Part shown: positions 2,909 through 17,751 of the stretch, piece after piece
Layout: each line of letters starts with the position of its first letter
Position numbering within the stretch: the first letter of the stretch is position 1
Assembly (NCBI GenBank): GCA_036679605.1
Contig: JAZDCZ010000051.1
Span: 1 to 17,751 of the forward strand
Origin: Gemmatimonadota bacterium
Lineage (GTDB): Bacteria; Gemmatimonadota; Gemmatimonadetes; Gemmatimonadales; GWC2-71-9
Length of the DNA: 17,751 bases
Direction of reading: 5' to 3'
Notes under the pieces: generated by a model
What the model was told of the DNA's origin: nothing
Database searches by the model: none
The model's input: only the letters and a program-made list of their open reading frames with translations
Made by a program: the position numbers and the translations under genes

Positions 2909-3133
2909 CCGGTTTCGTATACAGGCCGGTACCTCATGCGTCCCGCCAGCGCCGTCCTTGCTTTCCGCTGCAATCTCGACTTCGGCGCCAGGGCTTGCCA
3001 CCTTCCGAGACCTTCGCTGGGCTGCCGCAATACCGGCTGAGACGCTGCTCGTACCCCGGATATCCCCACTGTTTGTCGCATTCTCTTTAGCCGCCCCTTG
3101 ACAAGCGGCCGTGGGTAAGACCTATTTGACTTT

Positions 3134-3152
3134 GAGAATGAAAGTCAATATC
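3134..3152 (+). promoter_or_regulatory. Fur box
   Basis: GAGAATGAAAGTCAATATC matches the consensus GATAATGATAATCATTATC at 15/19 positions. It is an AT-rich patch at the head of a haem-uptake operon and overlaps a candidate TTGACT(3126)-N17-TATCAA promoter. A perfect TTGACA also lies at 3098-3103. Confidence 0.8.
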
Positions 3153-3362
3153 AATAGTCAACCGGAGCAAGGAACCCCCGATGGACCCGAGGATATCCGC
3201 TGCTTCTGCAACAGCCTACTTGCGCGCCGTCGTGGCGACACCATCGAGCTCAAGTGTAGGCGTTGCCGGCGCACGCTCGCGATCCGTCTGTCCGACCTTA
3301 CCGTCGAGATGGCCGAAACATCGGCGGCGCCCGGAGACAGTCGGAAAGGAAAGGAGGAGTAA
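3138..3362 (+). CDS. Small Com-like (phage Mu Com family-like) 4-Cys zinc-ribbon protein, putative regulator
   Basis: EDIRCFCNSLLARRRGDTIELKCRRCRRT fits the Com-type pattern RC..C..LLA....IEIKC.RC, here with a CxC first pair. Start is uncertain; the in-frame ATG 3138 lies inside the Fur box. Confidence 0.7.
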   Translation: MKVNINSQPEQGTPDGPEDIRCFCNSLLARRRGDTIELKCRRCRRTLAIRLSDLTVEMAETSAAPGDSRKGKEE

Positions 3363-3428
3363 GCCCATGAGTCCCTAAAACCCTAGGAAAATCTACTCTC
3401 CACGCAACAACACAACTCCATGCGGCCC

Positions 3429-3492
3429 GCGGATCCCTCAGCCCAGAGCCCGGAACCAAGCACTTAAAAGCTAACGGGTAAGAGGTATCCGC
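3429..3492 (+). promoter_or_regulatory. Predicted leader hairpin sequestering the Shine-Dalgarno of the 3493 gene
   Basis: GCGGATCCCTC (3429-3439) is complementary at 10/11 positions to GAGGTATCCGC (3482-3492; SD up to the ATG). Inner pairing GCCCG 3448-3452 with CGGGT 3475-3479. Confidence 0.5.
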
Positions 3493-4665
3493 ATGAAAAC
3501 AACAAAAAAAACCATCAGCGCCTATCGTGCGACGCTTGTCGCACTCATGCTCGGTTGCGCCGCGACGACCACCGGAACGGCCGTCGCGCATGCAGCCGTA
3601 CTGACCATCGACCAAGCTACAGCCGGCACTCTTATAGATGGCCTTCTCGACGGCTTTCCCGGTGTCGCAACGTTCGACGGCGTCGCCGACTTCGCGGGCA
3701 ACCCCTTGGCGGTCGCACTCAAAGACGGCGCCACCGAGGAGCGTGGGATCATCGAGTATCCGCTCGACACACTCACCGGGTTAAGCTCGAGCGATATCCA
3801 GAGCGCGACTCTCACCTGGAATATCGATGATGTGCTCTCGACCTTCGGTCCCGGCACCGACTTCGACGGAACCGCTGCCGAAACCGTCATACTGTTCGAT
3901 TACGCCGGTAATGGAAGCATCGACCTGTCCGATTTCCAAAACGTAGCCGGTGCCCCTCTGGCGGTCGTGGACACAACGCCGTTCGGAGTGATCACCGATG
4001 CAAGCCTGGCGGGTACGGGACCGCTGGTCTTCGAGGTCGACGTCACGGCGGCCATTCAAGCCCACCTCGATGCTGCCGACACACACATGGGCCTGGTGTT
4101 CGCGACCAACGACGATCAAAGCGGTACGTCGCTCGATGACCTCGGGGACGGGGGTGCAGGACCACCAGGAGTCAACGGTGCCTCCCTGCCCTTCGTGACC
4201 ATTGTCACCGTCACCGGCGAACCCCCCGTATTCGGCAAGAAGGAACTCAAGTGCCAGAAGGCAATCGCCAAGACCGCCGGCAAATTCGTCAAGACCGCTC
4301 AGAAGGAACTAGGCAAGTGCCTGAATTCGGTGTTGCTGGCGGTGTCAAAGGGCCAAGACCTCACCGCGGTCGAAGCGAAGTGTCGCGCCGGAATCGACGC
4401 GGCAGATCCTGCATCCAAGCTGGCGAAAGCAAACACCGGGGCAATCAACAAGATCGTCGGTTCTTGCAGCGATGTTTCGCCAGGGGACATCAACAGCCCA
4501 TGTGATGCCTTGGCGACGGACGCCAACGCTATGGCAACCTGCGTCGTCAGCGATCACACAAAACGTGTGGAGCAGATGGTACGCGCGGAGTTCGCCGATG
4601 GCTGTAACCTGCTCGGCGCTGTCAATCTAGACGACCAATTCACGGAGTTGTGCACCGCCCCGTAA
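3493..4665 (+). CDS. Secreted protein A: signal peptide + ~200-aa acidic beta-rich domain (DNRLRE/CBM96-like sandwich pattern) + 8-Cys helical C-terminal domain
   Basis: SD GAGGT; signal peptide ending AHA (LGC at residues 20-22 is a weak lipobox alternative). The N-domain (3625-4209) is 117/195 identical, without gaps, to 7038-7622. The C-domain begins KCQKAIAKTAGKFVK...LGKCL. Confidence 0.85.
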   Translation: MKTTKKTISAYRATLVALMLGCAATTTGTAVAHAAVLTIDQATAGTLIDGLLDGFPGVATFDGVADFAGNPLAVALKDGATEERGIIEYPLDTLTGLSSSDIQSATLTWNIDDVLSTFGPGTDFDGTAAETVILFDYAGNGSIDLSDFQNVAGAPLAVVDTTPFGVITDASLAGTGPLVFEVDVTAAIQAHLDAADTHMGLVFATNDDQSGTSLDDLGDGGAGPPGVNGASLPFVTIVTVTGEPPVFGKKELKCQKAIAKTAGKFVKTAQKELGKCLNSVLLAVSKGQDLTAVEAKCRAGIDAADPASKLAKANTGAINKIVGSCSDVSPGDINSPCDALATDANAMATCVVSDHTKRVEQMVRAEFADGCNLLGAVNLDDQFTELCTAP

Positions 4666-4684
4666 ACCGGTAACGGGCCCCGTC

Positions 4685-4710
4685 CCGGGGGAGGCTCACG
4701 CCTCCCCCGG
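4685..4710 (+). other. Strong intergenic stem-loop (11-bp perfect GC-rich stem, no U tract)
   Basis: CCGGGGGAGGC-TCAC-GCCTCCCCCGG between secreted protein A and the TonB-dependent receptor. Confidence 0.75.
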
Positions 4711-4740
4711 CCGCGGGCGGGTATCACAGGACGTTGTGCA

Positions 4741-6906
4741 GTGAAATCAAACGTAGGTCCGAGGCAGGTAGCAACAAGTCTCGCTGTGGCTGGAAGTATT
4801 TTGCTTATGCTCGTTGCAACGCCGGCTAACGGTGAGACGCCGAAACACGCCTCCACCGGAAAAGGAGAAAACGACTCTAATGCTCTACCCGACTACCGAA
4901 CGCCGACGGTTGTCGTGACAGGAACGAAGACCGAACATTCCGCGTCTGACGCGCCCGTGCCTACTCAGGTCGTTCCGCGTGCGGTCCTGGAAGAAACATC
5001 GAGTGACAACATCGAGTCGGTGATCAATCAGATTCCCGACATCCACGTGCGCCGTAATGATCAATTTACCCTCGGGGCCAGCACCGTGCGAATGCAGGGC
5101 CTCGGCCCCAACAAGGCTGCAATCGTTATCGACGGGCAGAGATTTCGGGGCGGTATCGACGGCGTAGTGGACCTTCGCGACATTCCGGTGGCCGGCATCG
5201 AGCAGATCGAGATCATCCGCGGCCCGTCGTCGAGCCTTTACGGAAGCGACGCAATGGCCGGTGTCATCAATATCCGTACCCGCCAAGGGTCCGAGCAGCC
5301 CGTTGTGAATCTGACGGTGGCCGGCGGTACGGCCGATAAACGCCTGGTCACTCTCACTCACGGCTATCGCATAGGCAACCTTAGCTATTTTGTAAGCGCG
5401 CAACATGATGCTGTCGCAATAGGAAAGCTGTTCGGTCCGATAAGCGCGCAGTTCGAAGGGGGCAGGGACGAAGACCTGCAGGAGCGCAACAGCGTTCGGG
5501 CTCGTCTAGACTATCGACTCGAACACCACCAATTCAACCTGACGACAGACTTTCTGCGCGAAGACAACCCGCTCAGTTTCAACGATAATCTGACCACGTC
5601 AGCCGGGTGGCAATGGCGCCCCGCACCTCTCTGGAACTTGGATGCCAGCGCCAGTTTCTATCGATTCACCCGCCAAAACGACCTCCCTGGTTTTGCCGAA
5701 GACGTGGAGTTCGTTCGCCCTTCAGGCGAATTGCGGGTGAGTCGAACGATCGGCGCTTTGCTGGCTGCCGACCACGTCTTGAGCTTCGGCGCGAGGCTCG
5801 ACTCACAGGAACTCGAATCGCCGGCGATGGTGCGGGGCTCAAACATGGAATTTACCTCGCCGGCCATCGACGCCGACACCTTCCAGTACACCGTTTTTGT
5901 ACAAGACGAGATACTCGCCGGAGCAAAGTGGAGTTTCGTCGTCGGTGCTAGTTTTGACGATCATAACCGCTTCGGCCTCGAAACGAGCCCGCGTTTGACG
6001 CTTACTTGGGATCCCTATGATTCGCTGCGCGTATCCGCGAGCGTCGGCCGCGGGTTCCGAGCGCCCGACCTTCTCCAGCTCTTCGATGTCGACGTAAACA
6101 ACGTCCTGGTGGTCGACGGGCGCGTTACGGGCTACGCGTTGATCGGCAACCCCGACCTTCAGCCGGAAACCGACTGGGGCTACACGATGTTCGCCGAGTA
6201 CACGGCGAGTGACGCTGTAGGTCTCACCTTCAATGCGTTCTGGCACGAGGTGGATGATCTAATTGCCAACAATCTCGCCTGTCCCACCCCTACGACCTGC
6301 AAAGACGGTTTCGACAATCCACTGCCCGATCTGATCGGTCCGATATTTTCTTTTGAGAACGTCGATGCCGCTCGCACACGTGGGTTCGATTTGAACCTAA
6401 AACTCGTACCGCCTCACGATTGGCTGAGGCGCGAAGGCCCTCACGCTCTCGAAATCAACCTGGGAATCGGTTTTCTCGATACGCAGAACCTCAGCGACAT
6501 CGCCGGTCAACGCGGCAAGGATCTACCGTTCAATCCCCCTCTCAGGTTTCTTCCGGCTGTAGTTTATCGCCAACGGATACTAGGAACCCAGATCCGTGTG
6601 TGGGGCGAGTTTTCCGAGCGCCAATTCAGCGATCTGGCCGCCTCTGATGCCGGCCGGATTGCACCGCATTGGCTGTGGAACTTCAAGTTGACTCAACGCC
6701 TGTCGGCGCTCGCAACCGCCATCGGGATCAAGAAACATGCGTGGCTCGATACCGTCAGCGTGTTCGTCGAAGGTGACAACATTTTCGACCAAAGCGTCGG
6801 TTTTTCCGGACCACGCGGGCGCATAGCACCGAACGCCAATTTCGTCTTTGGACTGCGATTCAATACCGAGATGGGTTCGCATCACACCACAGTGGGACAA
6901 CAATGA
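4741..6906 (+). CDS. TonB-dependent outer-membrane receptor (probable haem/haemophore receptor by context)
   Basis: Signal peptide, TonB-box-like TVVVTGTKT, plug motif IEQIEIIRGPSSSLYGSDAMAGVINIRT, GFRAP...GNPDLQPE and beta-barrel strands. Confidence 0.93.
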   Translation: MKSNVGPRQVATSLAVAGSILLMLVATPANGETPKHASTGKGENDSNALPDYRTPTVVVTGTKTEHSASDAPVPTQVVPRAVLEETSSDNIESVINQIPDIHVRRNDQFTLGASTVRMQGLGPNKAAIVIDGQRFRGGIDGVVDLRDIPVAGIEQIEIIRGPSSSLYGSDAMAGVINIRTRQGSEQPVVNLTVAGGTADKRLVTLTHGYRIGNLSYFVSAQHDAVAIGKLFGPISAQFEGGRDEDLQERNSVRARLDYRLEHHQFNLTTDFLREDNPLSFNDNLTTSAGWQWRPAPLWNLDASASFYRFTRQNDLPGFAEDVEFVRPSGELRVSRTIGALLAADHVLSFGARLDSQELESPAMVRGSNMEFTSPAIDADTFQYTVFVQDEILAGAKWSFVVGASFDDHNRFGLETSPRLTLTWDPYDSLRVSASVGRGFRAPDLLQLFDVDVNNVLVVDGRVTGYALIGNPDLQPETDWGYTMFAEYTASDAVGLTFNAFWHEVDDLIANNLACPTPTTCKDGFDNPLPDLIGPIFSFENVDAARTRGFDLNLKLVPPHDWLRREGPHALEINLGIGFLDTQNLSDIAGQRGKDLPFNPPLRFLPAVVYRQRILGTQIRVWGEFSERQFSDLAASDAGRIAPHWLWNFKLTQRLSALATAIGIKKHAWLDTVSVFVEGDNIFDQSVGFSGPRGRIAPNANFVFGLRFNTEMGSHHTTVGQQ

Positions 6907-7886
6907 TGATCAGACAAAGGAGGCGACTCCCTTTCCTAACCCCGTATCGGCACGTCTTTATAATAGCGGCGCTTACACTGTGTATTCTCGGCTCGAGCGC
7001 CGACGCCGAGGAATTCGTGATTGGCGCCAACTCCCCCGGTACAGCCTTTGACGCCTTGATCGACGGCTTCCCCGGGCTAGCGTCGATGGACGGTATCGCC
7101 GATTTCGGCGGCAACAGGTTGGGTATCGCACTGAAAACGCAGGTTACCGAAGAGCGCGCCCTCCTCGAATTTTCACTGGATGCGCTGGCCGGTCTTACTG
7201 CACCCGACATCGAAACAGCGACGCTGACGTTCAACATTGACGATGTACTCACAACGTTTGGTCCGGGCACCTCATTCGACGCTACAGCGGCGGAGAGAAT
7301 CCTACTGTTCGCCTACGCGGGAAACGGAGTCATTGAGTTGGGCGATTTTGAAGAAGCGGTAGGGCCACCGTTCGCCGTAGTGGATACTTCCACCGTCGGC
7401 GTGATTGCCGACGCCTCATTGACCGTCTCCGGGCCCTTGTTTTTTTCAGTTGATGCGCACCCGGTACTCGCAAACCGCTTGATCGCCGGAGATACACACC
7501 TCGGTATTATTTTTGTGACCGACGACGATCAAACCGGGACCTCGCTCGACGATCTCGGCAACGGCGCCGGCGGTCCGCCCGGCATCGGCGGCTCGATCCT
7601 GCCCTTTCTCACTATCACGACGCGAATCGTTACGACCACGACCAGCACGACGATCAGTACGACAACGACCACGACGATGGAGTCGGCAATGTGTGGCGAC
7701 GCAAATTTGAACGGTAGGATCACGGCTTCCGACGCATTGATAGTTCTGCGTATTGCCGTCGGCGTGGGGTCGTGTCGGGCTCAGGTTTGCGACGTCGACG
7801 CGAACGGTACGATCTCGGCTAGTGATGCACTGCGGGTGCTCCAGGTGGCGGTGGGGCTACCGGTGGAGTTGAACTGCGTTGGTTAA
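6903..7886 (+). CDS. Secreted protein B: paralogue of protein A N-domain + Thr-rich linker + Cys-flanked dockerin-like (duplicated EF-hand-like) domain
   Basis: ATGA overlap with the receptor stop; signal peptide ending ADA; shared motifs DGFPG, NIDDVLxTFGPGT, YAGNG and GTSLDDLG. Poly-Thr linker, then CGDANLNGRITASDALIVLRIAVG / CDVDANGTISASDALRVLQVAVG (7692-7886). Confidence 0.88.
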   Translation: MMIRQRRRLPFLTPYRHVFIIAALTLCILGSSADAEEFVIGANSPGTAFDALIDGFPGLASMDGIADFGGNRLGIALKTQVTEERALLEFSLDALAGLTAPDIETATLTFNIDDVLTTFGPGTSFDATAAERILLFAYAGNGVIELGDFEEAVGPPFAVVDTSTVGVIADASLTVSGPLFFSVDAHPVLANRLIAGDTHLGIIFVTDDDQTGTSLDDLGNGAGGPPGIGGSILPFLTITTRIVTTTTSTTISTTTTTTMESAMCGDANLNGRITASDALIVLRIAVGVGSCRAQVCDVDANGTISASDALRVLQVAVGLPVELNCVG

Positions 7887-7952
7887 GAGTGAACCGCGAC
7901 GTTGAGTTTGCCGACAACGATGAGGAGCACCTAGCTCTGTATGGAGGAAAAA

Positions 7953-9026
7953 ATGAAAACACAGAGCAAACGCGCACCTGAAACACTGTCGCCCGGTGGC
8001 TTGTATGAAGCGTGGGCCGAGCTGCAACGCTATGAGCCCGGCGTACGTGCCCACGATGCGGCTGAGGCGCTCGAGGTTAGCGAAGCCGATTTGGTAGCAA
8101 GTACGTGCGGAGATACCGCTACACGGCTGGACGGTCCTTGGGACGAGATGCTGGCTGGGCTCCATCGAATGGGCCAGTTAACCACAGTAACACGGAATGA
8201 GTGTGCCGTTCACGAGACCGTCGGCCGTTACGGCCGTGTACATGTCATGGGTGGGAACCTCTTCGTCCGAGGTGTTGGAATCGACCTGCGTTTGTTAACC
8301 GGCAAGTGGCATGTGGGATTCGCGGTTCGCAGGTCGACGGAAGCGGGTCCGCGTTACAGCCTGCAGTTTTTCGACCGCCACGGGATCGCCGTACACAAGA
8401 TCTACCTGGGAGAGGAGGTACGCCAAGATGCGTACGAGAGCCTCGTCAACCGCCATGCGCACGATGACCAGAGCACCGCCCAAAACACGGATGCCCCCGA
8501 GAGTCGAACCGCCGACCATCCTGATGGCCAAGTCAATGTGGATACGCTTCGAACCCGGTGGGCGTCGCTCGAGGACACACACGACTTCACCCCGATGCTC
8601 GCAGAACAAGGCGTCTCGCGTCTGCAAGCACTGCGTTTGGCCGGCAACGATTTCGCTCGCCGACTCCCCCCACCGGCACTCCGCCGCCTGATGCACGGAG
8701 CCCACGCAGCAGGCATCCCCGTTATGGTATTCGTTCCTAACTCCGGGGCGGTTCAGATCTCCACCGGGCCCGTCGGTCGCGTACGCTTGACGAACGGATG
8801 GACAAACGTAACGTCACCGACATTCACTCTTCACGTCCGTGACGACCGTATCGATTCTGTATGGGTTGTACAAAAACCTACCGTTGACGGAGTCGTGACA
8901 TCCCTCGAACTGTATACCGCCGACGGTGAGAACGTCGTGCTCTTTTACGGCGAGCGAAATCCCGGACACGCCGAGTCGCTCGTTTGGCGTGATCTCGTTG
9001 CATGGGTGGAACGCGGCAAACGATGA
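7953..9026 (+). CDS. hemS: Haemin-degrading/haem-trafficking protein, HemS/ChuS/HmuS family
   Basis: Two-repeat HemS architecture: DAAEALEVSEADLV, TRNECAVHE, IDLRL, SLQFFDRHGIAVHKIYL, DTHDF (haem His), VMVFV.N.GAVQI.TG and WVVQKPTVDGVVTSLELY. ATG 7953 follows a GGAGG SD (ATG 7941 is the alternative). Confidence 0.92.
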   Translation: MKTQSKRAPETLSPGGLYEAWAELQRYEPGVRAHDAAEALEVSEADLVASTCGDTATRLDGPWDEMLAGLHRMGQLTTVTRNECAVHETVGRYGRVHVMGGNLFVRGVGIDLRLLTGKWHVGFAVRRSTEAGPRYSLQFFDRHGIAVHKIYLGEEVRQDAYESLVNRHAHDDQSTAQNTDAPESRTADHPDGQVNVDTLRTRWASLEDTHDFTPMLAEQGVSRLQALRLAGNDFARRLPPPALRRLMHGAHAAGIPVMVFVPNSGAVQISTGPVGRVRLTNGWTNVTSPTFTLHVRDDRIDSVWVVQKPTVDGVVTSLELYTADGENVVLFYGERNPGHAESLVWRDLVAWVERGKR

Positions 9027-9946
9027 AAACGTCGAGCATACTCGAGAAGCGCGCGTTTATCTCAGCGCTGCGAAGATGTCTGCGGTCAGTCGCGTTGATC
9101 GCTTTCCTACTGGTCTCGGTGTCGGGGCGCGTGAATGCCGCGGAGAACACACGCATTGTTTCGATCGGAGGCGCCGTAACCGAGACGATTTTCGCATTGA
9201 AAGCCGGGCATCTTGTAGTCGGAGTGGATACCACGAGCGGCTGGCCGAACGAGGTGACAAGGTTGCCGCAAGTCGGCTACAAGAGAACTCTCTCCGCCGA
9301 AGGAATTCTCTCACTAGCGCCTTCTCTGGTCATCGCATCCGGTGACGCGGGACCGCCGCAAGCTCTTGCCAGTCTGGCCGATGCCGGCGTGCGCACTGTA
9401 TCGATACCCTTGGCCCTATCGGTAGCGGCAGCACAAGGAAATATCCTACGTATCGGGGAACTGCTCGGCGCGAACGAGCAGGCCACCGCACTAGCCAGGA
9501 TCCTTGCCGAGGAAGTGACATCGGCGCACAGTCGCGTCTCGAGAGAGAATAGGGCGCCGCGTGTTCTGTTCGTGGTCAATCCCCCGGGTCTGGGGTTTGC
9601 GCTCGCTGCCGGACGCAACACGGCGGCCGATACGATGATTCGGCTTGCCGGCGGCACCAACGTAATCGACGCGTTCGAGGGTTACCGGCCGCTAACCGGC
9701 GAAGCCGCGGTCGCGTCTTCGCCAGGAATCATTCTGGTAACGCGGGGGACTTTACAACGCACCGGTGGAGTGGATCGTTTTCTCGAAGTTGCAGCGCTTC
9801 GTCTGACCCCCGCCGGGCGCAGGCACAGAGTAAAGGAAATACCCAACTACGCTCTCGATTTTGGCCCGCGAACGGGTCGTGCATTGCGCGAATTGGTCGA
9901 TTTATTGTACGCACCGCTCGAAAATCCCGAGGAGTCACCGTCGTGA
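9023..9946 (+). CDS. hmuT: Haem ABC transporter periplasmic binding protein
   Basis: RIVSIGGAVTETIFAL, VGVDTTS, QVGYKRTLSAEGILSLAP (haem-ligating Tyr motif) and FGPRT; ATGA coupling with hemS. Confidence 0.92.
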   Translation: MKTSSILEKRAFISALRRCLRSVALIAFLLVSVSGRVNAAENTRIVSIGGAVTETIFALKAGHLVVGVDTTSGWPNEVTRLPQVGYKRTLSAEGILSLAPSLVIASGDAGPPQALASLADAGVRTVSIPLALSVAAAQGNILRIGELLGANEQATALARILAEEVTSAHSRVSRENRAPRVLFVVNPPGLGFALAAGRNTAADTMIRLAGGTNVIDAFEGYRPLTGEAAVASSPGIILVTRGTLQRTGGVDRFLEVAALRLTPAGRRHRVKEIPNYALDFGPRTGRALRELVDLLYAPLENPEESPS

Positions 9947-10995
9947 GACCTTCCGCGTGGTTACTACCGACACTGGCTGTGTTGCTGGTATTGGTGGCGC
10001 TGACCTCGATGACCGTCGGAGCGGTGGAAACCTCAGCCGGTCAAGTGATCACGATTTTGGCCCGGCCGTTTGGCTTCGAATTGCCTTGGCCATCGACTCA
10101 TACCCAACAGGCCGTCGTCCTATACCTACGTCTGCCTCGCGTCATCCTCGGCTCGTTGGTCGGCGCTGCCCTCGCAGTCGCGGGCGCGGCCACACAGGGC
10201 TTGTTCCGAAACCCACTCGCCGACCCGGGTTTGATCGGTATTGCGGCAGGTGCCGCTCTGGCCGTCGTCACGACGATCGTGATTGGGGATCAAGTGCCGG
10301 TGATGAACTCGTCTGTCGCCGCCCTGCTGAACCGTCTCGCAGTTCCGACAGCGGCTTTTGTCGGCGCACTGGCAACAACGTTCATCGTCTATCGGTTATC
10401 GCTGGTATCGGGCCGCACCGTGGTCGCGATGATGCTGCTCGCAGGGATCGGTATCAACGCACTCGCCGGCTCGGCGACTGGATTGCTCGTTTACCTGGCC
10501 GACGACCAAGAGTTACGATCGGTTACGTTTTGGACCTTGGGAAGCCTAGCCGGAGCTTCATGGCCGTCTCTGTCGGTGGCCGGACCCATCATGTTCATCA
10601 CGGTGCTCGTGTTGCCGCGCTTCGGTTTGCCACTCAATGCCATGGTCCTGGGCGAGTCGGCGGCAACTCACCTAGGGATCGACGTACAGCGCACCAAGCG
10701 CATGCTTGTCACACTCGTCGCCCTGGGGGTGGGAGCGGCTGTATCGGTAGCAGGCATGGTAGGATTCATCGGGCTAGTCGTACCTCATTTGCTTCGCCTC
10801 ACCGTCGGGCCTGACCATCGTCGCCTTCTTCCCGCGTCAGCCCTGTTGGGCGCTAGCCTTACCATAGGAGCCGACTCGGCCGCTAGAACACTGGTTTCTC
10901 CGGCGGAACTGCCACTGGGCATTCTCACGGCACTTTGCGGCGCACCCTTCCTGCTCTGGTTGCTTCGTAGCGAACGGCGACAGGGGTATTTATGA
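9943..10995 (+). CDS. hmuU: Haem ABC transporter permease (FecCD family)
   Basis: LRLPRVILG...QGLFRNPLADPGLIG, GESAATHLGIDV and GFIGLVVPHLLR; GTGA overlap. Confidence 0.93.
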   Translation: MRPSAWLLPTLAVLLVLVALTSMTVGAVETSAGQVITILARPFGFELPWPSTHTQQAVVLYLRLPRVILGSLVGAALAVAGAATQGLFRNPLADPGLIGIAAGAALAVVTTIVIGDQVPVMNSSVAALLNRLAVPTAAFVGALATTFIVYRLSLVSGRTVVAMMLLAGIGINALAGSATGLLVYLADDQELRSVTFWTLGSLAGASWPSLSVAGPIMFITVLVLPRFGLPLNAMVLGESAATHLGIDVQRTKRMLVTLVALGVGAAVSVAGMVGFIGLVVPHLLRLTVGPDHRRLLPASALLGASLTIGADSAARTLVSPAELPLGILTALCGAPFLLWLLRSERRQGYL

Positions 10996-11837
10996 GCCTT
11001 ACAGTCGTTAACGGTACGGCCACACGGCTAGGAAAATCGGTTCTCGACAACGTTTCGGTTGAGATCACGCCGGGACGGGTATTAGCGATCATTGGTGCCA
11101 ACGGCGCCGGGAAATCGTCACTCATCAAGGTAGCCGCAGGCGACCTGAAGCTCGCGCGCGGCAGCGTGACACTCGGTGGTAAACCGCTGGCCGACTGGTC
11201 GATCAAACAACGCGCGCAGGTTCGCGCGGTACTTCCGCAGACCAGCGACGCCGCGATGGGCTTTCGGGTTTCGGATTTGGTTTTGCTCGGACGAATTCCG
11301 CACAACGGCGGCGTCGCAACCTGCAGTGATCACTCAATTGCTGCCCGCTGCTTGGAAGCGGTTGACGCATCTCACCTGGCGGGGCGTGTGTATTCTACAT
11401 TATCAGGCGGGGAGCAACAGCGGATCCATATAGCACGCGTGTTCACGCAGATTTGGGTGCCGTCGCAACAGAAACCCTGCCGTTATTTGCTTCTCGACGA
11501 ACCCACCACGGCTCTCGACTTGTGTCACCAGCACGAAATCTTGGGACTCGTCCGTAGGCTGGCTCGAAAAAACGTCGGGGTGGCTGTGGTACTACACGAC
11601 TTGAATCTGGCAGCTCGTTACGCCGACCGTATCTGCTTGCTGGATCACGGTCGCAGCGTTTCGATCGGGACTCCGGACGAAGTGTTGAACGCCAAGACAA
11701 TCGCCGGCGCATTGGGTATCCGCGTTGCTGTTCGCCGTCACCCGGATTTCGACTGCCCGCTCGTTCTTTACCTCGGCAAGACCGGATCGCGACTTCCGCC
11801 CACGCACCAGAATACTATGGAGGAAATAGCAGTATGA
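10992..11837 (+). CDS. hmuV: Haem ABC transporter ATP-binding protein
   Basis: Walker A GANGAGKS, signature LSGGEQQR, Walker B LLLDEPT and H-loop VLHDLNLA. Confidence 0.93.
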   Translation: MSLTVVNGTATRLGKSVLDNVSVEITPGRVLAIIGANGAGKSSLIKVAAGDLKLARGSVTLGGKPLADWSIKQRAQVRAVLPQTSDAAMGFRVSDLVLLGRIPHNGGVATCSDHSIAARCLEAVDASHLAGRVYSTLSGGEQQRIHIARVFTQIWVPSQQKPCRYLLLDEPTTALDLCHQHEILGLVRRLARKNVGVAVVLHDLNLAARYADRICLLDHGRSVSIGTPDEVLNAKTIAGALGIRVAVRRHPDFDCPLVLYLGKTGSRLPPTHQNTMEEIAV

Positions 11838-12055
11838 ATCACTCAAGCGAACTTCAAGCGCACGGCCAACGCATCGTAGCGCGATCGAAAGTGTGCGAGG
11901 TGCAATGTTGTGGTTGTGGGATGATCCATGTGTTGATCGGCTCGATTACACTGCATCTCACACCCAACGCGTTTAAATCCGTAAGCGACACTATGGGAAA
12001 CGCGGTGCGTCGCTTAACCAAGACCGACGAGCAGCCCCCCGAATTTCTTTGCTAA
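11834..12055 (+). CDS. Small Cys/His-rich hypothetical protein (73 aa)
   Basis: GGAGG SD; ATGA overlap with hmuV and TAATG overlap with exbB; motif CEVQCCGCGMIHVLIGSITLHL. Confidence 0.72.
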   Translation: MNHSSELQAHGQRIVARSKVCEVQCCGCGMIHVLIGSITLHLTPNAFKSVSDTMGNAVRRLTKTDEQPPEFLC

Positions 12056-12750
12056 TGCTTGACGCTTCGCTGCTTGGTGCGCTGGAGATTTTCGAGCGTG
12101 GCGGCGTACTCATGCCCGTCTTGCTATTGTTATCGGTGATTGCAATGGCAACCGCGCTGTTAAAGCTGTACCAGTTCCACCGCTACGCTCTTAGGCGCTT
12201 GGACTTCATCAACCCAGCCGTTGCCATGATCCGCTCCGGCGATACCGAGGCCGCGTTGAAAGTCCTGGCTGGCACGCACAATCCGATAGCGCGCGCTTTG
12301 GAGGCAGGCGGGCTCACGCTGGATGCTTCGGAAAGTGGAACCCCGGTCGACCCAAAAGCGGAGATGATTAGGGTCGGTAATTGTCAACTGCGTGAACTCG
12401 GGACTTGGCTGCGAGTATTGTCCTCCGTAACACAAGTCAGTCCGATGCTCGGTTTACTTGGTACGGTCGGCGGGATGATTTCAGCTTTCGGAAAACTGGA
12501 AGAGGCCGGTTCCTTGGCGAACCCGGCGCTTTTGTCGGGGGGAATATCGGCGGCTTTGTTGACGACCGCGTCTGGCTTGGTGATCGCCATACCGTCGATG
12601 ATCGCATTGCAGTACTTCGAAGGAGAAATTGACCGTGTCCGCGAGGCCATGCAGGACGCTGGTGCGCGCATCCTGAGTGGCATTCGTACGGCAGACGGTT
12701 TCGTCGAGCGCGGTAAGAGAGCATTACAGGCCGTAGGTCATGGAGCTTGA
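12055..12750 (+). CDS. exbB: MotA/TolQ/ExbB proton-channel protein
   Basis: GGVLMPVLLLLS, SPMLGLLGTVGGMISAF and LSGGISAALLTTASGLVIAIP; ATG 12055 overlaps the upstream TAA. Confidence 0.92.
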   Translation: MLDASLLGALEIFERGGVLMPVLLLLSVIAMATALLKLYQFHRYALRRLDFINPAVAMIRSGDTEAALKVLAGTHNPIARALEAGGLTLDASESGTPVDPKAEMIRVGNCQLRELGTWLRVLSSVTQVSPMLGLLGTVGGMISAFGKLEEAGSLANPALLSGGISAALLTTASGLVIAIPSMIALQYFEGEIDRVREAMQDAGARILSGIRTADGFVERGKRALQAVGHGA

Positions 12751-13141
12751 ACGTAGATCGAAGCTGGCGACTAAATTGGAACTGGCACCGCTTGTGGATG
12801 TCGTGTTTCTGTTGCTGATATTTTTTTTGCTAACCAGCGTGTATGTCGTTCCTCAGTCCGTAGAGGTGAATCTGCCGGTATCGGCGAACGCCAAATCGCC
12901 TTTGAGGGCGACGATCACAGTAAGCTTGGCTACCGATCGCTCCATTACCGTCGAAGGTAAACGAGTAGATTGGTCCGCGTTGCGTGCCCGCGTCGAATCA
13001 ATCCTGCAGCCCAATTCCAAGCAAACGATAGCCCTGCATGCGAGCGCAGATGTCTCCGTACAAGACCTGCTAGCAGTGATGGACGTATTGCGCGCCGCCG
13101 GTGGCCGCAACATCGCTCTGGCCGCCCGGCCTGAGGCCTGA
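12740..13141 (+). CDS. exbD: ExbD/TolR biopolymer transport protein
   Basis: LAPLVDVVFLLLIFFLLTS, VNLP and VMDVLRAAG. Confidence 0.92.
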   Translation: MELERRSKLATKLELAPLVDVVFLLLIFFLLTSVYVVPQSVEVNLPVSANAKSPLRATITVSLATDRSITVEGKRVDWSALRARVESILQPNSKQTIALHASADVSVQDLLAVMDVLRAAGGRNIALAARPEA

Positions 13142-13145
13142 GGGC

Positions 13146-13883
13146 TTGCGGATCACCCGACGACATCGAGTAGCCGCCCTTGCGGGCGCCCTCGCCATCC
13201 ATGTCGTCGCGTTGGCCGGCCTGGGCGCGATACGGTCGAAACACCCCATTGTTCCTGCCCCGCACATGGTCATTTCGATCCAGAAAGTGAGCCTTCGTGA
13301 GAGCGCACCGCTAACCCACATCACGTCGCCGCAGTCCCCCGTCGAAGACAGTACGGCGAAACCGGCCACGTCGAAAAGTATCCCACCTGCCGCTGCTGTC
13401 CCGAAGCGCACGCATACCGTCGCCAAGCCCCTGGAGCGCACCCATGTGACAAAACCGGCACGAACAGCGACATCTTCCAAACCCGAGCGGGATAGAAAAG
13501 CTGATGCCGACGACAAAACGAATATCGCCAAAACCGAATCCTCCAGCCGCATACGTCCGCAGTCGAACTCGGCCGTGACGCAGAACGAAGTGGTACACGC
13601 ACGCTATGTTCAGCTTCTTGCCGCGTGGTTGGACAAACACAAGTACTACCCACGACGCGCCGTGCGACTCGGGTTGGAAGATACGGTGATCGAACGTATC
13701 CGTATAGCGCGGGACGGCTCGGTGATTGCCCACAAACCTTCACGCCCAGCCGCGTACTCCATTTTCACCTCATCGGTAGAGGAAATGGTCGAACGTGCGG
13801 ATCCGTTTCCACCCATTCCCGATCAACTGACTGTCGACACGCTCGAGTTCGAGGTGCCGGTGCGGTTTACGCTTCCAGACTAA
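13146..13883 (+). CDS. tonB: Energy transducer TonB
   Basis: N-terminal TM with ALAIH, P/K/T-rich linker, C-domain KYYPRRAVRLGLED...ADPFPPIP...VPVRF. TTG 13146 is the probable start (ORF open from 13101). Confidence 0.85.
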   Translation: MRITRRHRVAALAGALAIHVVALAGLGAIRSKHPIVPAPHMVISIQKVSLRESAPLTHITSPQSPVEDSTAKPATSKSIPPAAAVPKRTHTVAKPLERTHVTKPARTATSSKPERDRKADADDKTNIAKTESSSRIRPQSNSAVTQNEVVHARYVQLLAAWLDKHKYYPRRAVRLGLEDTVIERIRIARDGSVIAHKPSRPAAYSIFTSSVEEMVERADPFPPIPDQLTVDTLEFEVPVRFTLPD

Positions 13884-13969: not shown

Positions 13970-14482
13970 TTATCTGTTTGCGATCATACGGTCGCGCAAT
14001 GCTTCGAATTTCTCTATTTGCGCGGGGATCAATCGCCGTTCTTCATCGCGGCCAAGATAAATCTTGAACATGCATCCCCCATCCCTATTATAGAATTGAA
14101 CCGAACGAGTGTCGCTCGAAAACAGCTTGCGGGAAACGAAGCTGATAGAGGCGCAGTCGTCGGCCTTCACGTGCCCGCCGATCGGCTTGCCCTGCAGATT
14201 GTAGAAGCCGTGGGCCATCTCGCCTTCGGGAACGCTACCCTTGACTTCCAGAATGAGGTCGGTCGTGTTTACAATAAAGGTGACCTCACCCCACGTTGCG
14301 ATCTCTAACATCACCCGCATGAATTCATCACCACCGATGGTCGAGACTTCTCTTTCCGGTAGGCAGGAAATTACATCGGCTGTTGTGACATCGTGCTGCT
14401 CGGCAATCTGCTCCAGGACCGCGCCTGGATTCTGCGCCAGCGACGCGGCAACGGCTTCACGTGTTTCTGCGGTCAAGTTCAC
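13970..14482 (-). CDS. hutX: Cytosolic haem carrier HutX/ChuX
   Basis: WGEVTFIVNT.D.ILE.KG..P.G..AHGFYNL.G..IGGH, SVQFYN.DG.CMFKIYLGRDE.R.L; adjacent to hutW. Confidence 0.92.
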   Translation of the reverse strand: MNLTAETREAVAASLAQNPGAVLEQIAEQHDVTTADVISCLPEREVSTIGGDEFMRVMLEIATWGEVTFIVNTTDLILEVKGSVPEGEMAHGFYNLQGKPIGGHVKADDCASISFVSRKLFSSDTRSVQFYNRDGGCMFKIYLGRDEERRLIPAQIEKFEALRDRMIANR

Positions 14483-14500: not shown

Positions 14501-15901
14501 TCACTTCAACAGAGAGTAGGACTTTCGTTTTTCGTTGATATTCTGATTGAGCCATTCCAGTAGATTCTGGGTCATGGTGACTTGCCAGAAGCGACCCGCA
14601 ATAGTGAGATCGACCCAGTCGGCCTTGCGGTTCAAGAGTCCCGCATACTGCCATTGCTCAAGGAGCGGCCCAATAATCGCATCCAGATCGAGCCCTGTGC
14701 GACGCTCCAGCTCTACCGCCAGACTAGTAAGATTGAGCCGCCCGCGCTCCATGCTCCCCTTGATGGGATCAAACAGTCCACGATGTTCGGATTGGTTCAA
14801 AAGGTGGGCCATCGGGTTTTCCCCTCGTTCTATCTGCGATCGGTAGGCCTTGAGATCGCCGTTGATGCGATAAGAGTAACCGTTCAAGGAGCCACCCGCG
14901 CCCGAGCCGAAAGCAAGGCAGTCAGCGCCTTTCTTCGCTTCCCGATTGTAGATATTGCGCTCTCGCGCGGTGCGCCTCCAATGGGTCGTCGAAATGGTTT
15001 CCCAGCACGCGTGCTCCAGCAGCTCGGAGCCACGTTCATAATAGGCGCCGTATTCGGTCTTTGCGGTAGGGGCAAATTTACCCTTCTCGATGGCGGTGAG
15101 CAGCGGCGTACCTGGTATGAGATTGAGGGCGTAAAGATCGACGCCGTCAAGGCCGATCTCGATGGCCGTGCGTACATCGGCCTCCCACATCTCCATCGAC
15201 TGATTAGGAAAACCGTAGATCAGGTCGATGATGACGGCCCCCTTGTCGACGGCGACCAGCTCTTCAAGGAATGCAATCACTTTCTCGCGCGACGCCTTGC
15301 GGCCCATTGAGCGGCGCAGTTCTTCATGAAAGCTCTGGACCCCGATAGACACCCGGTTGGCACCCGCGTCGAACACAGCCCTCATCTTGTCGCTCGTAAA
15401 ACTGTGGACGCGGCCCTCGATGGTAATCTCGCAGTCGGGTGCAAGCGGCAAATTCTTGCGCGTGGCTTGCACTAGCCGGGCAAGGTCGCGAGCCGATAGG
15501 GCGCTTGGTGTGCCACCGCCGAAATAGACCGCATGCACAGGACCTTGTGATTGATAGGGCAGGTCGGCTTCACGGCGTAGATTTTCGATCACGGCGTCCG
15601 TGTACGGCGTACCATTCTCATCGCGCCACCGGCTTTGGTAGAAGCCGCAGAACAGGCAGTGGTTCGCGCAAAAGGGGACATGCAGATAGGCAACGCTCTT
15701 GCCCCGGCGCGGCGTTGCGGTGATCTCTCGCCAGATTGACTCGCGCTCTTCTTCGGGCACAGGCGATATGCCGATAGAGGGATGCACAACCTTTCTCCCG
15801 TTGAAGGCATTCGCCAACGGGGTGCCATCCACGCTGGCAAAGAAATCCTCCAAGCTGCTCGGCGCCGCCATGCCGCCGTGGACCGGATGATGACGTTTCA
15901 T
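14501..15901 (-). CDS. hutW: Anaerobic haem-degrading radical SAM methyltransferase ChuW/HutW (HemN-like)
   Basis: YLHVPFCANHCLFCGF (CxxxCxxC), VYFGGGTPS, CEITIEGRV, ERNIYN and GRFWQVTM; paired with hutX. Start uncertain: ATG 15901 chosen, ORF open to TTG 15961. Confidence 0.9.
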   Translation of the reverse strand: MKRHHPVHGGMAAPSSLEDFFASVDGTPLANAFNGRKVVHPSIGISPVPEEERESIWREITATPRRGKSVAYLHVPFCANHCLFCGFYQSRWRDENGTPYTDAVIENLRREADLPYQSQGPVHAVYFGGGTPSALSARDLARLVQATRKNLPLAPDCEITIEGRVHSFTSDKMRAVFDAGANRVSIGVQSFHEELRRSMGRKASREKVIAFLEELVAVDKGAVIIDLIYGFPNQSMEMWEADVRTAIEIGLDGVDLYALNLIPGTPLLTAIEKGKFAPTAKTEYGAYYERGSELLEHACWETISTTHWRRTARERNIYNREAKKGADCLAFGSGAGGSLNGYSYRINGDLKAYRSQIERGENPMAHLLNQSEHRGLFDPIKGSMERGRLNLTSLAVELERRTGLDLDAIIGPLLEQWQYAGLLNRKADWVDLTIAGRFWQVTMTQNLLEWLNQNINEKRKSYSLLK

Positions 15902-16114
15902 CGGGAATTGCGCTTCGGCTTTAGTTCCGTTCCCACCAAACACGCTCAGAGCCTTCCGCAAAACCGGGTGCGATTCTAAAACGGTTCATCGCATTGGACA
16001 TCAAGACTTCGCTTCGGATTACCAAAAATAACGAGCCGGCCAGGTGATGCATGCCGTTCTACACAGACAAACGCGTGAAACACGATTGTTAGCATACAGA
16101 CTTGGGATACACCA

Positions 16115-16260
16115 CCCGGTGACCGCCTGGCACCTGTAGTCGCCGGACAGTAACAGGCCTGCATCGGTCTGGCCGGACGCCCGGACTCGCCGATGCCGGA
16201 GTCAGACGCGGCCGATTCGGCCGTGGATATCTTCGAGGGCCGAGCTGGCCTCGGTCCACA
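16115..16260 (+). repeat. Right copy of the direct repeat; includes a remnant of the cytochrome 3' end (16115-16153)
   Basis: 16115-16153 reads PGDRLAPVVAGQ*, versus PGGRLAPVSAGQ* at 2754-2792. The remainder covers the intergenic spacer and the last codons of the peptidase. Confidence 0.95.
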
Positions 16261-17578: not shown

Positions 17579-17751
17579 AGCAGCTATGGCAAGTAGCTAC
17601 ATCACAGGGTTCGGTTTCGCGTTCGGCCAGTGCCCGCCGCCGCTCCAACCAGAGATAATCACGATCTATATGGTGGTCGATGAAATCCCATGGGAAAAGT
17701 GCATCGTGGGGGTAGCTTGCGTACACGAAGCGATCCGGGTCGATGGCTACG

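Follow-up and report, generated by a model that had tools for sequence, protein, structure and literature searches.

This text concerns a putative haem-import cluster and its control elements on contig JAZDCZ010000051.1 of assembly GCA_036679605.1, which is filed under Gemmatimonadota. The window is the whole stretch analysed, 17,751 nucleotides (nt) read on the forward strand. Twelve genes, all on the forward strand (3138-13883), encode in this order a Com-like zinc ribbon, a secreted protein A, a TonB-dependent receptor, a secreted protein B, HemS, HmuT, HmuU, HmuV, a small Cys/His protein, ExbB, ExbD and TonB. Eight of the 11 gene junctions overlap by 4-41 nt; the remaining gaps are 130, 75 and 54 nt (starts taken from the longest open reading frames, ORFs). 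A preliminary description made from the letters alone had proposed one co-oriented, mostly coupled run, and all 12 genes were found where it had placed them. Its extent for the system (3098-13883) holds for the gene run but not for the end: the haem locus runs on to the convergent genes hutX and hutW. The features are listed below (SD, Shine-Dalgarno sequence; SAM, S-adenosylmethionine).

3126-3154, forward strand: putative sigma-70 promoter (TTGACT, 17 nt, TATCAA).
3134-3152, forward strand: Fur box, 15/19 to a 19-bp consensus.
3138-3362, forward strand: frame of the Com-like Cys4 zinc ribbon; the ribbon begins at 3201.
3424-3450, forward strand: RNA hairpin of 27 nt, candidate Com-like operator (GGCC[AC]G[AC]GG-loop-CC[AC]G[AC]GCC).
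3429-3492, forward strand: predicted competing stem, which pairs the hairpin with the SD of gene A (3480-3485).
3493-4665, forward strand: secreted A, with a signal-peptide-like start (by eye), an acidic jelly-roll domain (3586-4209) and a Cys-rich tail.
4741-6906, forward strand: TonB-dependent receptor, with FRAP at 439, Tyr465 and GNPDL.
6903-7886, forward strand: secreted B, with the same domain (6999-7622), a Thr-rich linker and a dockerin-like tail.
7941-9026, forward strand: hemS (PF05171, E 2e-70).
9002-11837, forward strand: hmuT, hmuU and hmuV (Tyr of HmuT in VGY.R.L; NF010068 above its cut-off).
11834-12055, forward strand: small Cys/His protein, four strands and one helix in the model; recurs in the Com-like regulon.
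12049-13883, forward strand: exbB, exbD and tonB (Pfam, NCBIfam).
13970-14482, reverse strand: hutX (TIGR04108, 207 bits, cut-off 110).
14501-15961, reverse strand: hutW/chuW, anaerobic haem-degrading radical SAM enzyme (TIGR04107, 545 bits, cut-off 400).

The genes hemS, hmuTUV and tonB-exbBD, described earlier as a standard haem core, are confirmed as such by Pfam and NCBIfam. The four accessory proteins (genes at 3138, 3493, 6903 and 11834) match no Pfam or NCBIfam family, except for the dockerin tail on B. The region upstream of hutW-hutX contains no site of at least 12/19 to the Fur consensus.

Homologues of A and B that bear a taxon label are mostly from Candidatus Binatia. The assembly of the window (G000) measures 6.7 Mb, whereas its genus relative has 3.7 Mb. 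By tetranucleotide composition the contig separates from the rest of G000, and a flanking ATPase matches three of three Binatia-class genomes and neither of two of G000's own kin. The domain of A gave one marginal match among 300 other genomes of the assembly's own class. G000 is probably a mixture, in which the contig and many short contigs with dockerin-like genes belong to a Binatia organism, binned elsewhere; the search of the assembly's own class was therefore off target. Later searches were centred on the class to which G301 belongs (the genome carrying locus L052; 201 genomes), here called Binatia-class, an assignment that we infer from the taxon labels of the A/B homologues. The 58 loci compared are partly redundant and many are short contigs.

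The first gene had been called a Com-like switch gene, and this is borne out. Its ribbon matches the PHROGs families 'translational regulator' (E 5e-5) and 'gpCom' (E 9e-4), and the alignment of its family matches Mu Com with 93.4% probability (hhalign). Four Cys are invariant in the family. As judged from sequence comparison, the zinc ribbon is a homologue of Mu Com. The Pfam family PF10122 was matched neither by the ribbon of the window nor by four relatives; single-sequence searches with the ribbon failed against longer proteins and gave nothing convincing in phages. The family comprises 2291 proteins, with Sorangium and Polyangiaceae entries among the best 120, and the ribbon is present in 74 of the 201 Binatia-class genomes.

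The Fur box proposed at the head of the run is real: at 15/19 it is the best site in the window, above every one of 30 shuffles, which reach 14 at most. It overlies the putative promoter, the position taken here to mark a member of the Fur regulon. Of 31 other zinc-ribbon genes, 10 have a Fur-like site (13-16/19) in the 260 nt ahead of them, and a similar promoter spacing was seen by eye upstream of the zinc-ribbon genes of L014, L040 and L043. A strict Fur consensus with three mismatches gave no match; a promoter/terminator scan stayed at chance level and missed the putative promoter.

Other arrangements were seen at the zinc-ribbon genes of relatives. In L049 (3474-3604) a short upstream ORF overlaps the zinc-ribbon start. 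In several relatives this start lies, by eye, about 9 nt past the putative -10 element, suggesting near-leaderless mRNAs. In L111-L115, L117, L119, L120 and L124 the zinc-ribbon gene is convergent with a ferritin-like gene (by eye), and in most of these a hairpin lies about 1.1 kb downstream, ahead of an ORF of 94 amino acids (aa) with no assigned function.

The hairpin pattern was derived by comparing the leaders of the 58 loci on which it was then counted. It gives 50 matches in 45 of the 58 loci plus the window, on the sense strand only, against 1-11 in 20 shuffles, and a hairpin lies downstream of 30 of 32 zinc-ribbon genes. The stem was analysed in 46 copies: in the inner stem, seven cells have both sides changed, a value equalled in none of 500 shuffles, and slid controls are lower. 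Applied loosely as a DNA pattern to five whole genomes, the motif gives 1-11 matches in each, mostly by chance according to a reversed-pattern control; a covariance model was therefore used instead. Run on 36 loci chosen by the zinc ribbon alone (six of them training loci, four of them weak ribbon matches), the model matched 24 at E<0.01, always on the strand of the ribbon. In a first set of whole genomes it matched 5/5 ribbon-positive and 0/5 negative genomes. In a set of 40 and 40, where four positives are training sequences and 25 negatives are assumed so from their absence in the ribbon listing, it matched 31 positives and three negatives at E<=0.02, and 30 and none at E<=0.01; the three matches in negative genomes have E 0.015-0.019. 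These tests covered Binatia-class genomes and metagenome contigs. Rfam has no match near 3424 at E<=1.

The comparison thus far establishes that the hairpin sequence is conserved, covaries and co-occurs with the ribbon. Some genomes contain 2-4 copies, and the zinc-ribbon protein would therefore act in trans. The Com-like protein and the hairpin appear, with good support from the comparison, to be a new version of the Com mechanism. A leader peptide was considered separately and rejected: the spacer lengths do not come in multiples of three, and for any frame at most 8/30 have an upstream start.

The preliminary description also mentioned a structured leader. What stands of this is the conserved, covarying hairpin; unusual stability by itself was not found (z -1.48 and z -1.62 for the leader of the window), and the leader is significant because its hairpin is conserved, not because it is unusually stable. 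Of 54 hairpins folded in isolation, 48 close; within the whole leader the mean probability of the hairpin is 0.003, and its 3' half pairs downstream (0.69). Pairing of the hairpin with the start region reaches 0.40, against 0.12 in shuffled sequences, and is higher in 38 of 52 (two long leaders omitted). When the hairpin is forced, the start region opens in 23 and closes in three of 54 leaders (10 matches with no clear start dropped), and in the window the SD is freed from 0.15 to 0.84. A terminator form was found in 2/50 leaders of A genes and in 15/35 others, the latter including chance matches and a few long-leader A genes.

The switch, proposed as part of the haem operon, is present there but is not haem-specific. 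Its hairpin also heads operons or genes for porin-like proteins, a cupredoxin, DUF4198, acyl-CoA dehydrogenases and small Cys proteins. The commonest non-haem target encodes a secreted protein of 440-480 aa with an N-terminal coiled coil and weak porin matches, a candidate iron porin; its loci are given on the next line.

L142:1599-3041, L148:1575-2960, L154, L164, L134 and L167: porin-like hairpin targets.

In L144 (1619-2779), L151 and L161 (1588-2751) the hairpin and a terminator stand immediately ahead of an acyl-CoA dehydrogenase gene, the function of which is perhaps related to siderophores or lipids. In the window itself, a GC-rich inverted repeat with no U tract was seen by eye between gene A and the receptor gene (4680-4715); it could stabilise the upstream mRNA.

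Proteins A and B share a domain of about 205 residues, with 57% identity over 204 aa. This domain has no Pfam or PHROGs match, the whole proteins have no NCBIfam match, and a profile of the domain matched no PDB sequence. A full profile-free search with it gave 60 representatives at E<=0.001; a single-sequence search of genome contigs with the A domain failed. The tails of the homologues are swapped (Cys-rich helical, dockerin-like, DUF4215 and others), and 24 further dockerin-like tails were matched elsewhere in the assembly; the tails are therefore generic and the A/B domain is the specific part. The A family occurs in 25 of the 201 Binatia-class genomes, in two or three copies in 23 of them, and all 25 are among the 74 ribbon-positive genomes. 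One receptor clade is present in 32 of the 58 A/B loci, with a permease in 27. No clustered iron gene was found in 17 of the 58, mostly short contigs or contigs ending at the A gene. An examination of homologue neighbourhoods had been suggested as a check of the system; it shows that the cassette recurs in Binatia loci and that the homologues are not scattered.

In the receptor, Tyr465 is invariant (31/31) and lies four residues ahead of GNPDL. The haem ligand Y529 of PhuR lies four residues ahead of PNPNL, as given in PMC10418163. The FRAP/NPDL loop and a Tyr at the PhuR Y529 spacing favour Tyr465 as a haem ligand by position; from this spacing and the operon context, haem is favoured, by position, as the substrate of the receptor. 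When a Tyr-type HmuT, HutX-like, haem oxygenase, HemS or HtaA is counted as a strict haem marker, 18 of the 27 loci with receptor and permease are positive; with a broader marker, 25 are. The haem enzymes differ across lineages: haem oxygenase in four loci, ABM in eight, HutX-like in six, HemS in three and HtaA in two.

The reading adopted here, with moderate confidence, is that of a Binatia cluster for haem import with two control layers, Fur and a Com-like hairpin switch, and with A and B serving the receptor. With ample iron, Fur would repress the promoter, as established Fur biology suggests. Under iron starvation, the first gene would make the Cys4 zinc ribbon resembling Mu Com. This protein would bind the symmetric hairpin in the next leader, composed of a GGC/GCC stem, C-[AC]-G-[AC] on both strands and an inner GG(U)/(R)CC stem. 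The unbound hairpin would be unstable and would pair with the SD and the start region of gene A, both of which binding would free. Both the binding and its activating sign are deduced by analogy with Mu Com. Ahead of other genes of the regulon, the same hairpin would overlap a terminator instead. Haem would enter via the PhuR-like Tyr-ligand receptor, HmuTUV and TonB-ExbBD, and would be degraded by HemS, HutX and HutW. A and B would be surface proteins held by tails of a generic Binatia extracellular type. The earlier proposal of a distinct system with two-tier control is supported in its control part by the conserved cassette, the Com homology and the covarying hairpin; its haem-capture part stays putative.

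The points that tell against this reading concern A and B, the start of the zinc-ribbon gene, the receptor and the hairpin. The A/B domain has no conserved His, Met or Cys (His in at most 13/26), and its one conserved Tyr (23/26) is in a core strand. The model of the A domain (pLDDT, predicted local distance difference test, of 96) is a jelly roll. Its closest folds are those of the chondroitin-binding module 8wab (Z 13.9, root-mean-square deviation (rmsd) 4.0, 163 residues aligned) and the alginate-binding module 7vbo (Z 12.4, rmsd 3.5, 161 aligned). Foldseek agrees with a fold of the carbohydrate-binding module (CBM) type (E 1e-6), and the Atlas gives matches to CBM96 clusters at 0.93-0.95. 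No known haemophore fold is among the fold matches listed for this domain. A CBM-like fold with no conserved His, Met or Cys means that A and B may be surface lectins or metal binders.

One alternative accordingly keeps the regulation and the haem core as proposed and takes A and B as Ca2+-binding CBM96-like lectins or adhesins for anionic polysaccharides, induced on iron starvation. This is a serious possibility, somewhat short of an even one. Besides the fold, it gains from the strongly acidic domain (30 Asp/Glu, two Lys/Arg), the invariant residues of which are Asp, Glu, Arg, Gly, Pro, Thr, Ser and small aliphatics, and from additional copies of the family beside feoAB or imelysin genes. 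It loses from an identity to the CBMs of just 12-14% at an rmsd of 3.5-4.0, from an acidic surface that would be poorly suited to a polyanion unless bridged by metal, and from the position of the family beside one receptor clade in 32 of the 58 loci, the rest being mainly short contigs. The Pfam family of CBM96 (PF24517) does not match the A/B domain, and no fusion to a glycan-degrading enzyme was found among 41 A/B homologues scanned. A prediction of the receptor in complex with the A domain scored 0.00 and weighs neither way. The 'own capture proteins' of the preliminary description are confirmed as a previously unrecognised, conserved family, but capture of haem remains putative for a domain with this composition. 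A and B appear to be a new family on a known fold, tied to iron operons. That their acidic jelly roll assists the receptor, gathering haem, haem proteins or iron-loaded polyanions on the cell surface with no classical His/Met ligand, is put forward tentatively, the balance being nearly even.

The zinc-ribbon gene had been placed from 3138. The ribbon frame holds, but the ATG at 3138 is doubtful as a usable start: it sits within the Fur box, between the putative -35 (3126) and -10 (3149) elements. The sole ATG preceded by an SD (3181) is out of frame with the ribbon, and the assembly yielded no second zinc-ribbon copy. An independent contig from run X1, which is probably the same sample, is letter-for-letter identical over the zinc-ribbon start. 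The Com-like gene may be broken in this strain, or may have an unusual start or a promoter farther upstream; if the activator gene is broken, A may therefore stay poorly translated. In the leader of the window, moreover, the whole start region stays at 0.29 when the hairpin is forced. In one unlikely alternative, the Com-like protein does bind the hairpin, but its effect is repression, or its binding is set by the metal (Fe or Zn) at the Cys4 site, and it is not a plain activator. An activator under Fur control in the same transcript would add little unless it senses something, the four invariant Cys could bind Fe or Zn, and the island is kept here though the Com-like gene may be broken. Against this, the unbound leader is predicted to be closed, either by pairing of the ribosome site or by a terminator that uses the 3' half of the hairpin, and stabilisation of the hairpin should therefore open it.

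The receptor has no His between FRAP and NPDL. By sequence it comes closest to CirA and BtuB, and it reaches 123 and 111 bits against TIGR01785 and TIGR01786, the cut-offs of which are 317 and 324. About half of the cassettes have a second binding-protein type (16 loci, against 14), with a consensus that has no HmuT Tyr motif. These matches and the loop without His, together with the 9/27 cassettes that have no strict haem marker, leave a small probability that what the receptor clade and A/B take up is a siderophore or a corrinoid, the haem genes being neighbours of convenience. It is kept small by the receptor gene being part of a single run that also includes hemS, a Tyr-type hmuT and a haem ATP-binding cassette (ABC) ATPase gene, beside hutWX, by the addition of different haem enzymes in different lineages, and by the invariant Tyr at the ligand spacing of PhuR.

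The three outer pairs of the hairpin are invariant among the 46 copies and, as they never vary, are uninformative on structure. Nine of the 40 ribbon-positive genomes gave no hairpin match, and these genomes are kin, not independent. The lengths of the hairpin form a continuous range (24-36 nt), which therefore favours RNA as the acting form. A double-stranded DNA operator of tandem CC[AC]G[AC]G repeats for a transcription factor, suggested by the direct repeat with its many invariant letters and by the annotation of some Com homologues as DNA-binding, is very improbable given the strict sense orientation, the continuous spacers with no helical phasing, the compensatory pairs and the location of the motif downstream of the promoter, within the transcript.

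The proposed two-layer cluster can be compared with known systems. The role of Com in Mu and the presence of com-like genes in prophages are treated in PMC3299994. The window has in common with the Mu com-mom pair a homologous Cys4 ribbon, encoded just upstream of its target, and a leader whose predicted structure may hide the ribosome site. The Mu stretch before mom contains GCCTGCG, near the half-site GCC[AC]G[AC]G; this stretch is presumably the Com site. Unlike Mu com, the gene of the window is chromosomal, stands behind a Fur box and belongs to iron-uptake operons. Unlike in Mu, the target has the form of an internal loop with two-fold symmetry and mostly lies outside coding sequence; it recurs several times per genome and has a terminator form. 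Chromosomal com-like genes are found before bacteriocin and levansucrase genes of Pseudomonas, and PMC6240691 calls their role unexplored; they are likewise short, often unannotated and ahead of a gene for a secreted protein, but the available text of that paper gives them no iron link and no RNA target.

All core families of the Phu, Hmu and Hut systems are present, with a Tyr at the PhuR Y529 spacing; the differences are a receptor below the cut-offs of the haem-receptor hidden Markov models and two additional secreted paralogues. No HemP or extracytoplasmic function (ECF) sigma pair was matched among the scanned genes. Like the haemophores HasA, HmuY, HphA, HusA, NEAT and HtaA, A and B are secreted accessory proteins encoded beside a receptor in a haem operon. 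As had been claimed, A and B match none of these families: no family or sequence match was found, and their best folds are jelly-roll CBMs. The A/B domain shares the beta-sandwich fold of the CBM96/DNRLRE modules (8wab, 7vbo) but is about 30 residues longer and confined to iron operons.

Cassettes vary in other genes. In the second binding-protein type (L050:9530-10441 and 15 other loci) the motifs DLGSPH and HGdP are conserved instead. Cassettes of this type contain a conserved 212-aa protein encoded after the ABC genes (L059:9232-9867 and 11 other loci), with a weak match to the PNPOx fold (E 0.004); it is a candidate haem enzyme resembling HugZ/HutZ. In L012 (1470-2585) and L035, genes for HtaA-domain proteins adjoin the Binatia cassette. 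HtaA-domain proteins are known from Actinobacteria.

The small Cys/His protein had been counted as a piece of the distinct haem system. This does not hold, as its relatives recur across the Com-like regulon, and it belongs to this wider regulon, not to the haem core. Relatives are encoded near a ribbon or a hairpin in L006, L007, L036 and L094, and more distant look-alikes right after the hairpin in L149, L158, L160 and L165 (14-33% identity). The model has weak matches to PC4/Pur-like folds (Z up to 5.6); the fold search gave nothing at E<=0.001, and a single-sequence search matched only the protein itself. In the Atlas, DUF6686 comes up as a low-scoring lead (0.82, 10% of members). The model gives at most a lead towards another binder of nucleic acid or metal in this regulon.

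The haem cluster is bracketed by direct repeats, and no integrase was seen in the window.

2753-2908: direct repeat copy 1, 156 bp, 83% identical; 3' end of a C69 peptidase gene and DNA downstream of it.
16114-16260: direct repeat copy 2, on the other side of the haem cluster.

In run X1, one 13.4-kb contig spans 2803-16191 with zero differences, and a related strain, 1-5% divergent, has contigs over the flanks only. The haem cluster is possibly a strain-variable island. In the flanks, a cytochrome c-like gene (2318-2790; CAKCH motif, by eye) has an apparent internal deletion near 2645, where a related contig of run X3 has about 75 more letters. A weak palindromic Fur-like site (17648-17672) upstream of the C69 peptidase gene scores 13/19, within the range of shuffles.

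The literature covered gave no account of a Com-like iron switch, of the hairpin or of the A/B family; most subscription papers and supplements, which may hold motif lists, lie outside this coverage. A wider view, possible but doubtful, is that a domesticated Com is a metal-sensing switch that runs a Binatia iron regulon by one symmetric hairpin, freeing the ribosome site in haem cassettes and acting by antitermination elsewhere, and that A and B are a new class of CBM-fold haemophores or iron-capture proteins partnered with a dedicated clade of Tyr-ligand receptors. Com has so far been studied as a phage regulator, and PMC6240691 describes the role of the chromosomal com-like genes as unexplored. 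The present comparison offers a defined target of 24-36 nt for a protein of 40 residues which, if true, would give bacterial iron control a further, protein-RNA tier. A single hairpin that serves both translation and termination control would, if confirmed, be a modular switch and possibly a tool pair for RNA engineering. Should A and B turn out to bind haem or complexes of iron, haemophores would include a CBM-like fold, and this would show an iron route of a widespread uncultured lineage.

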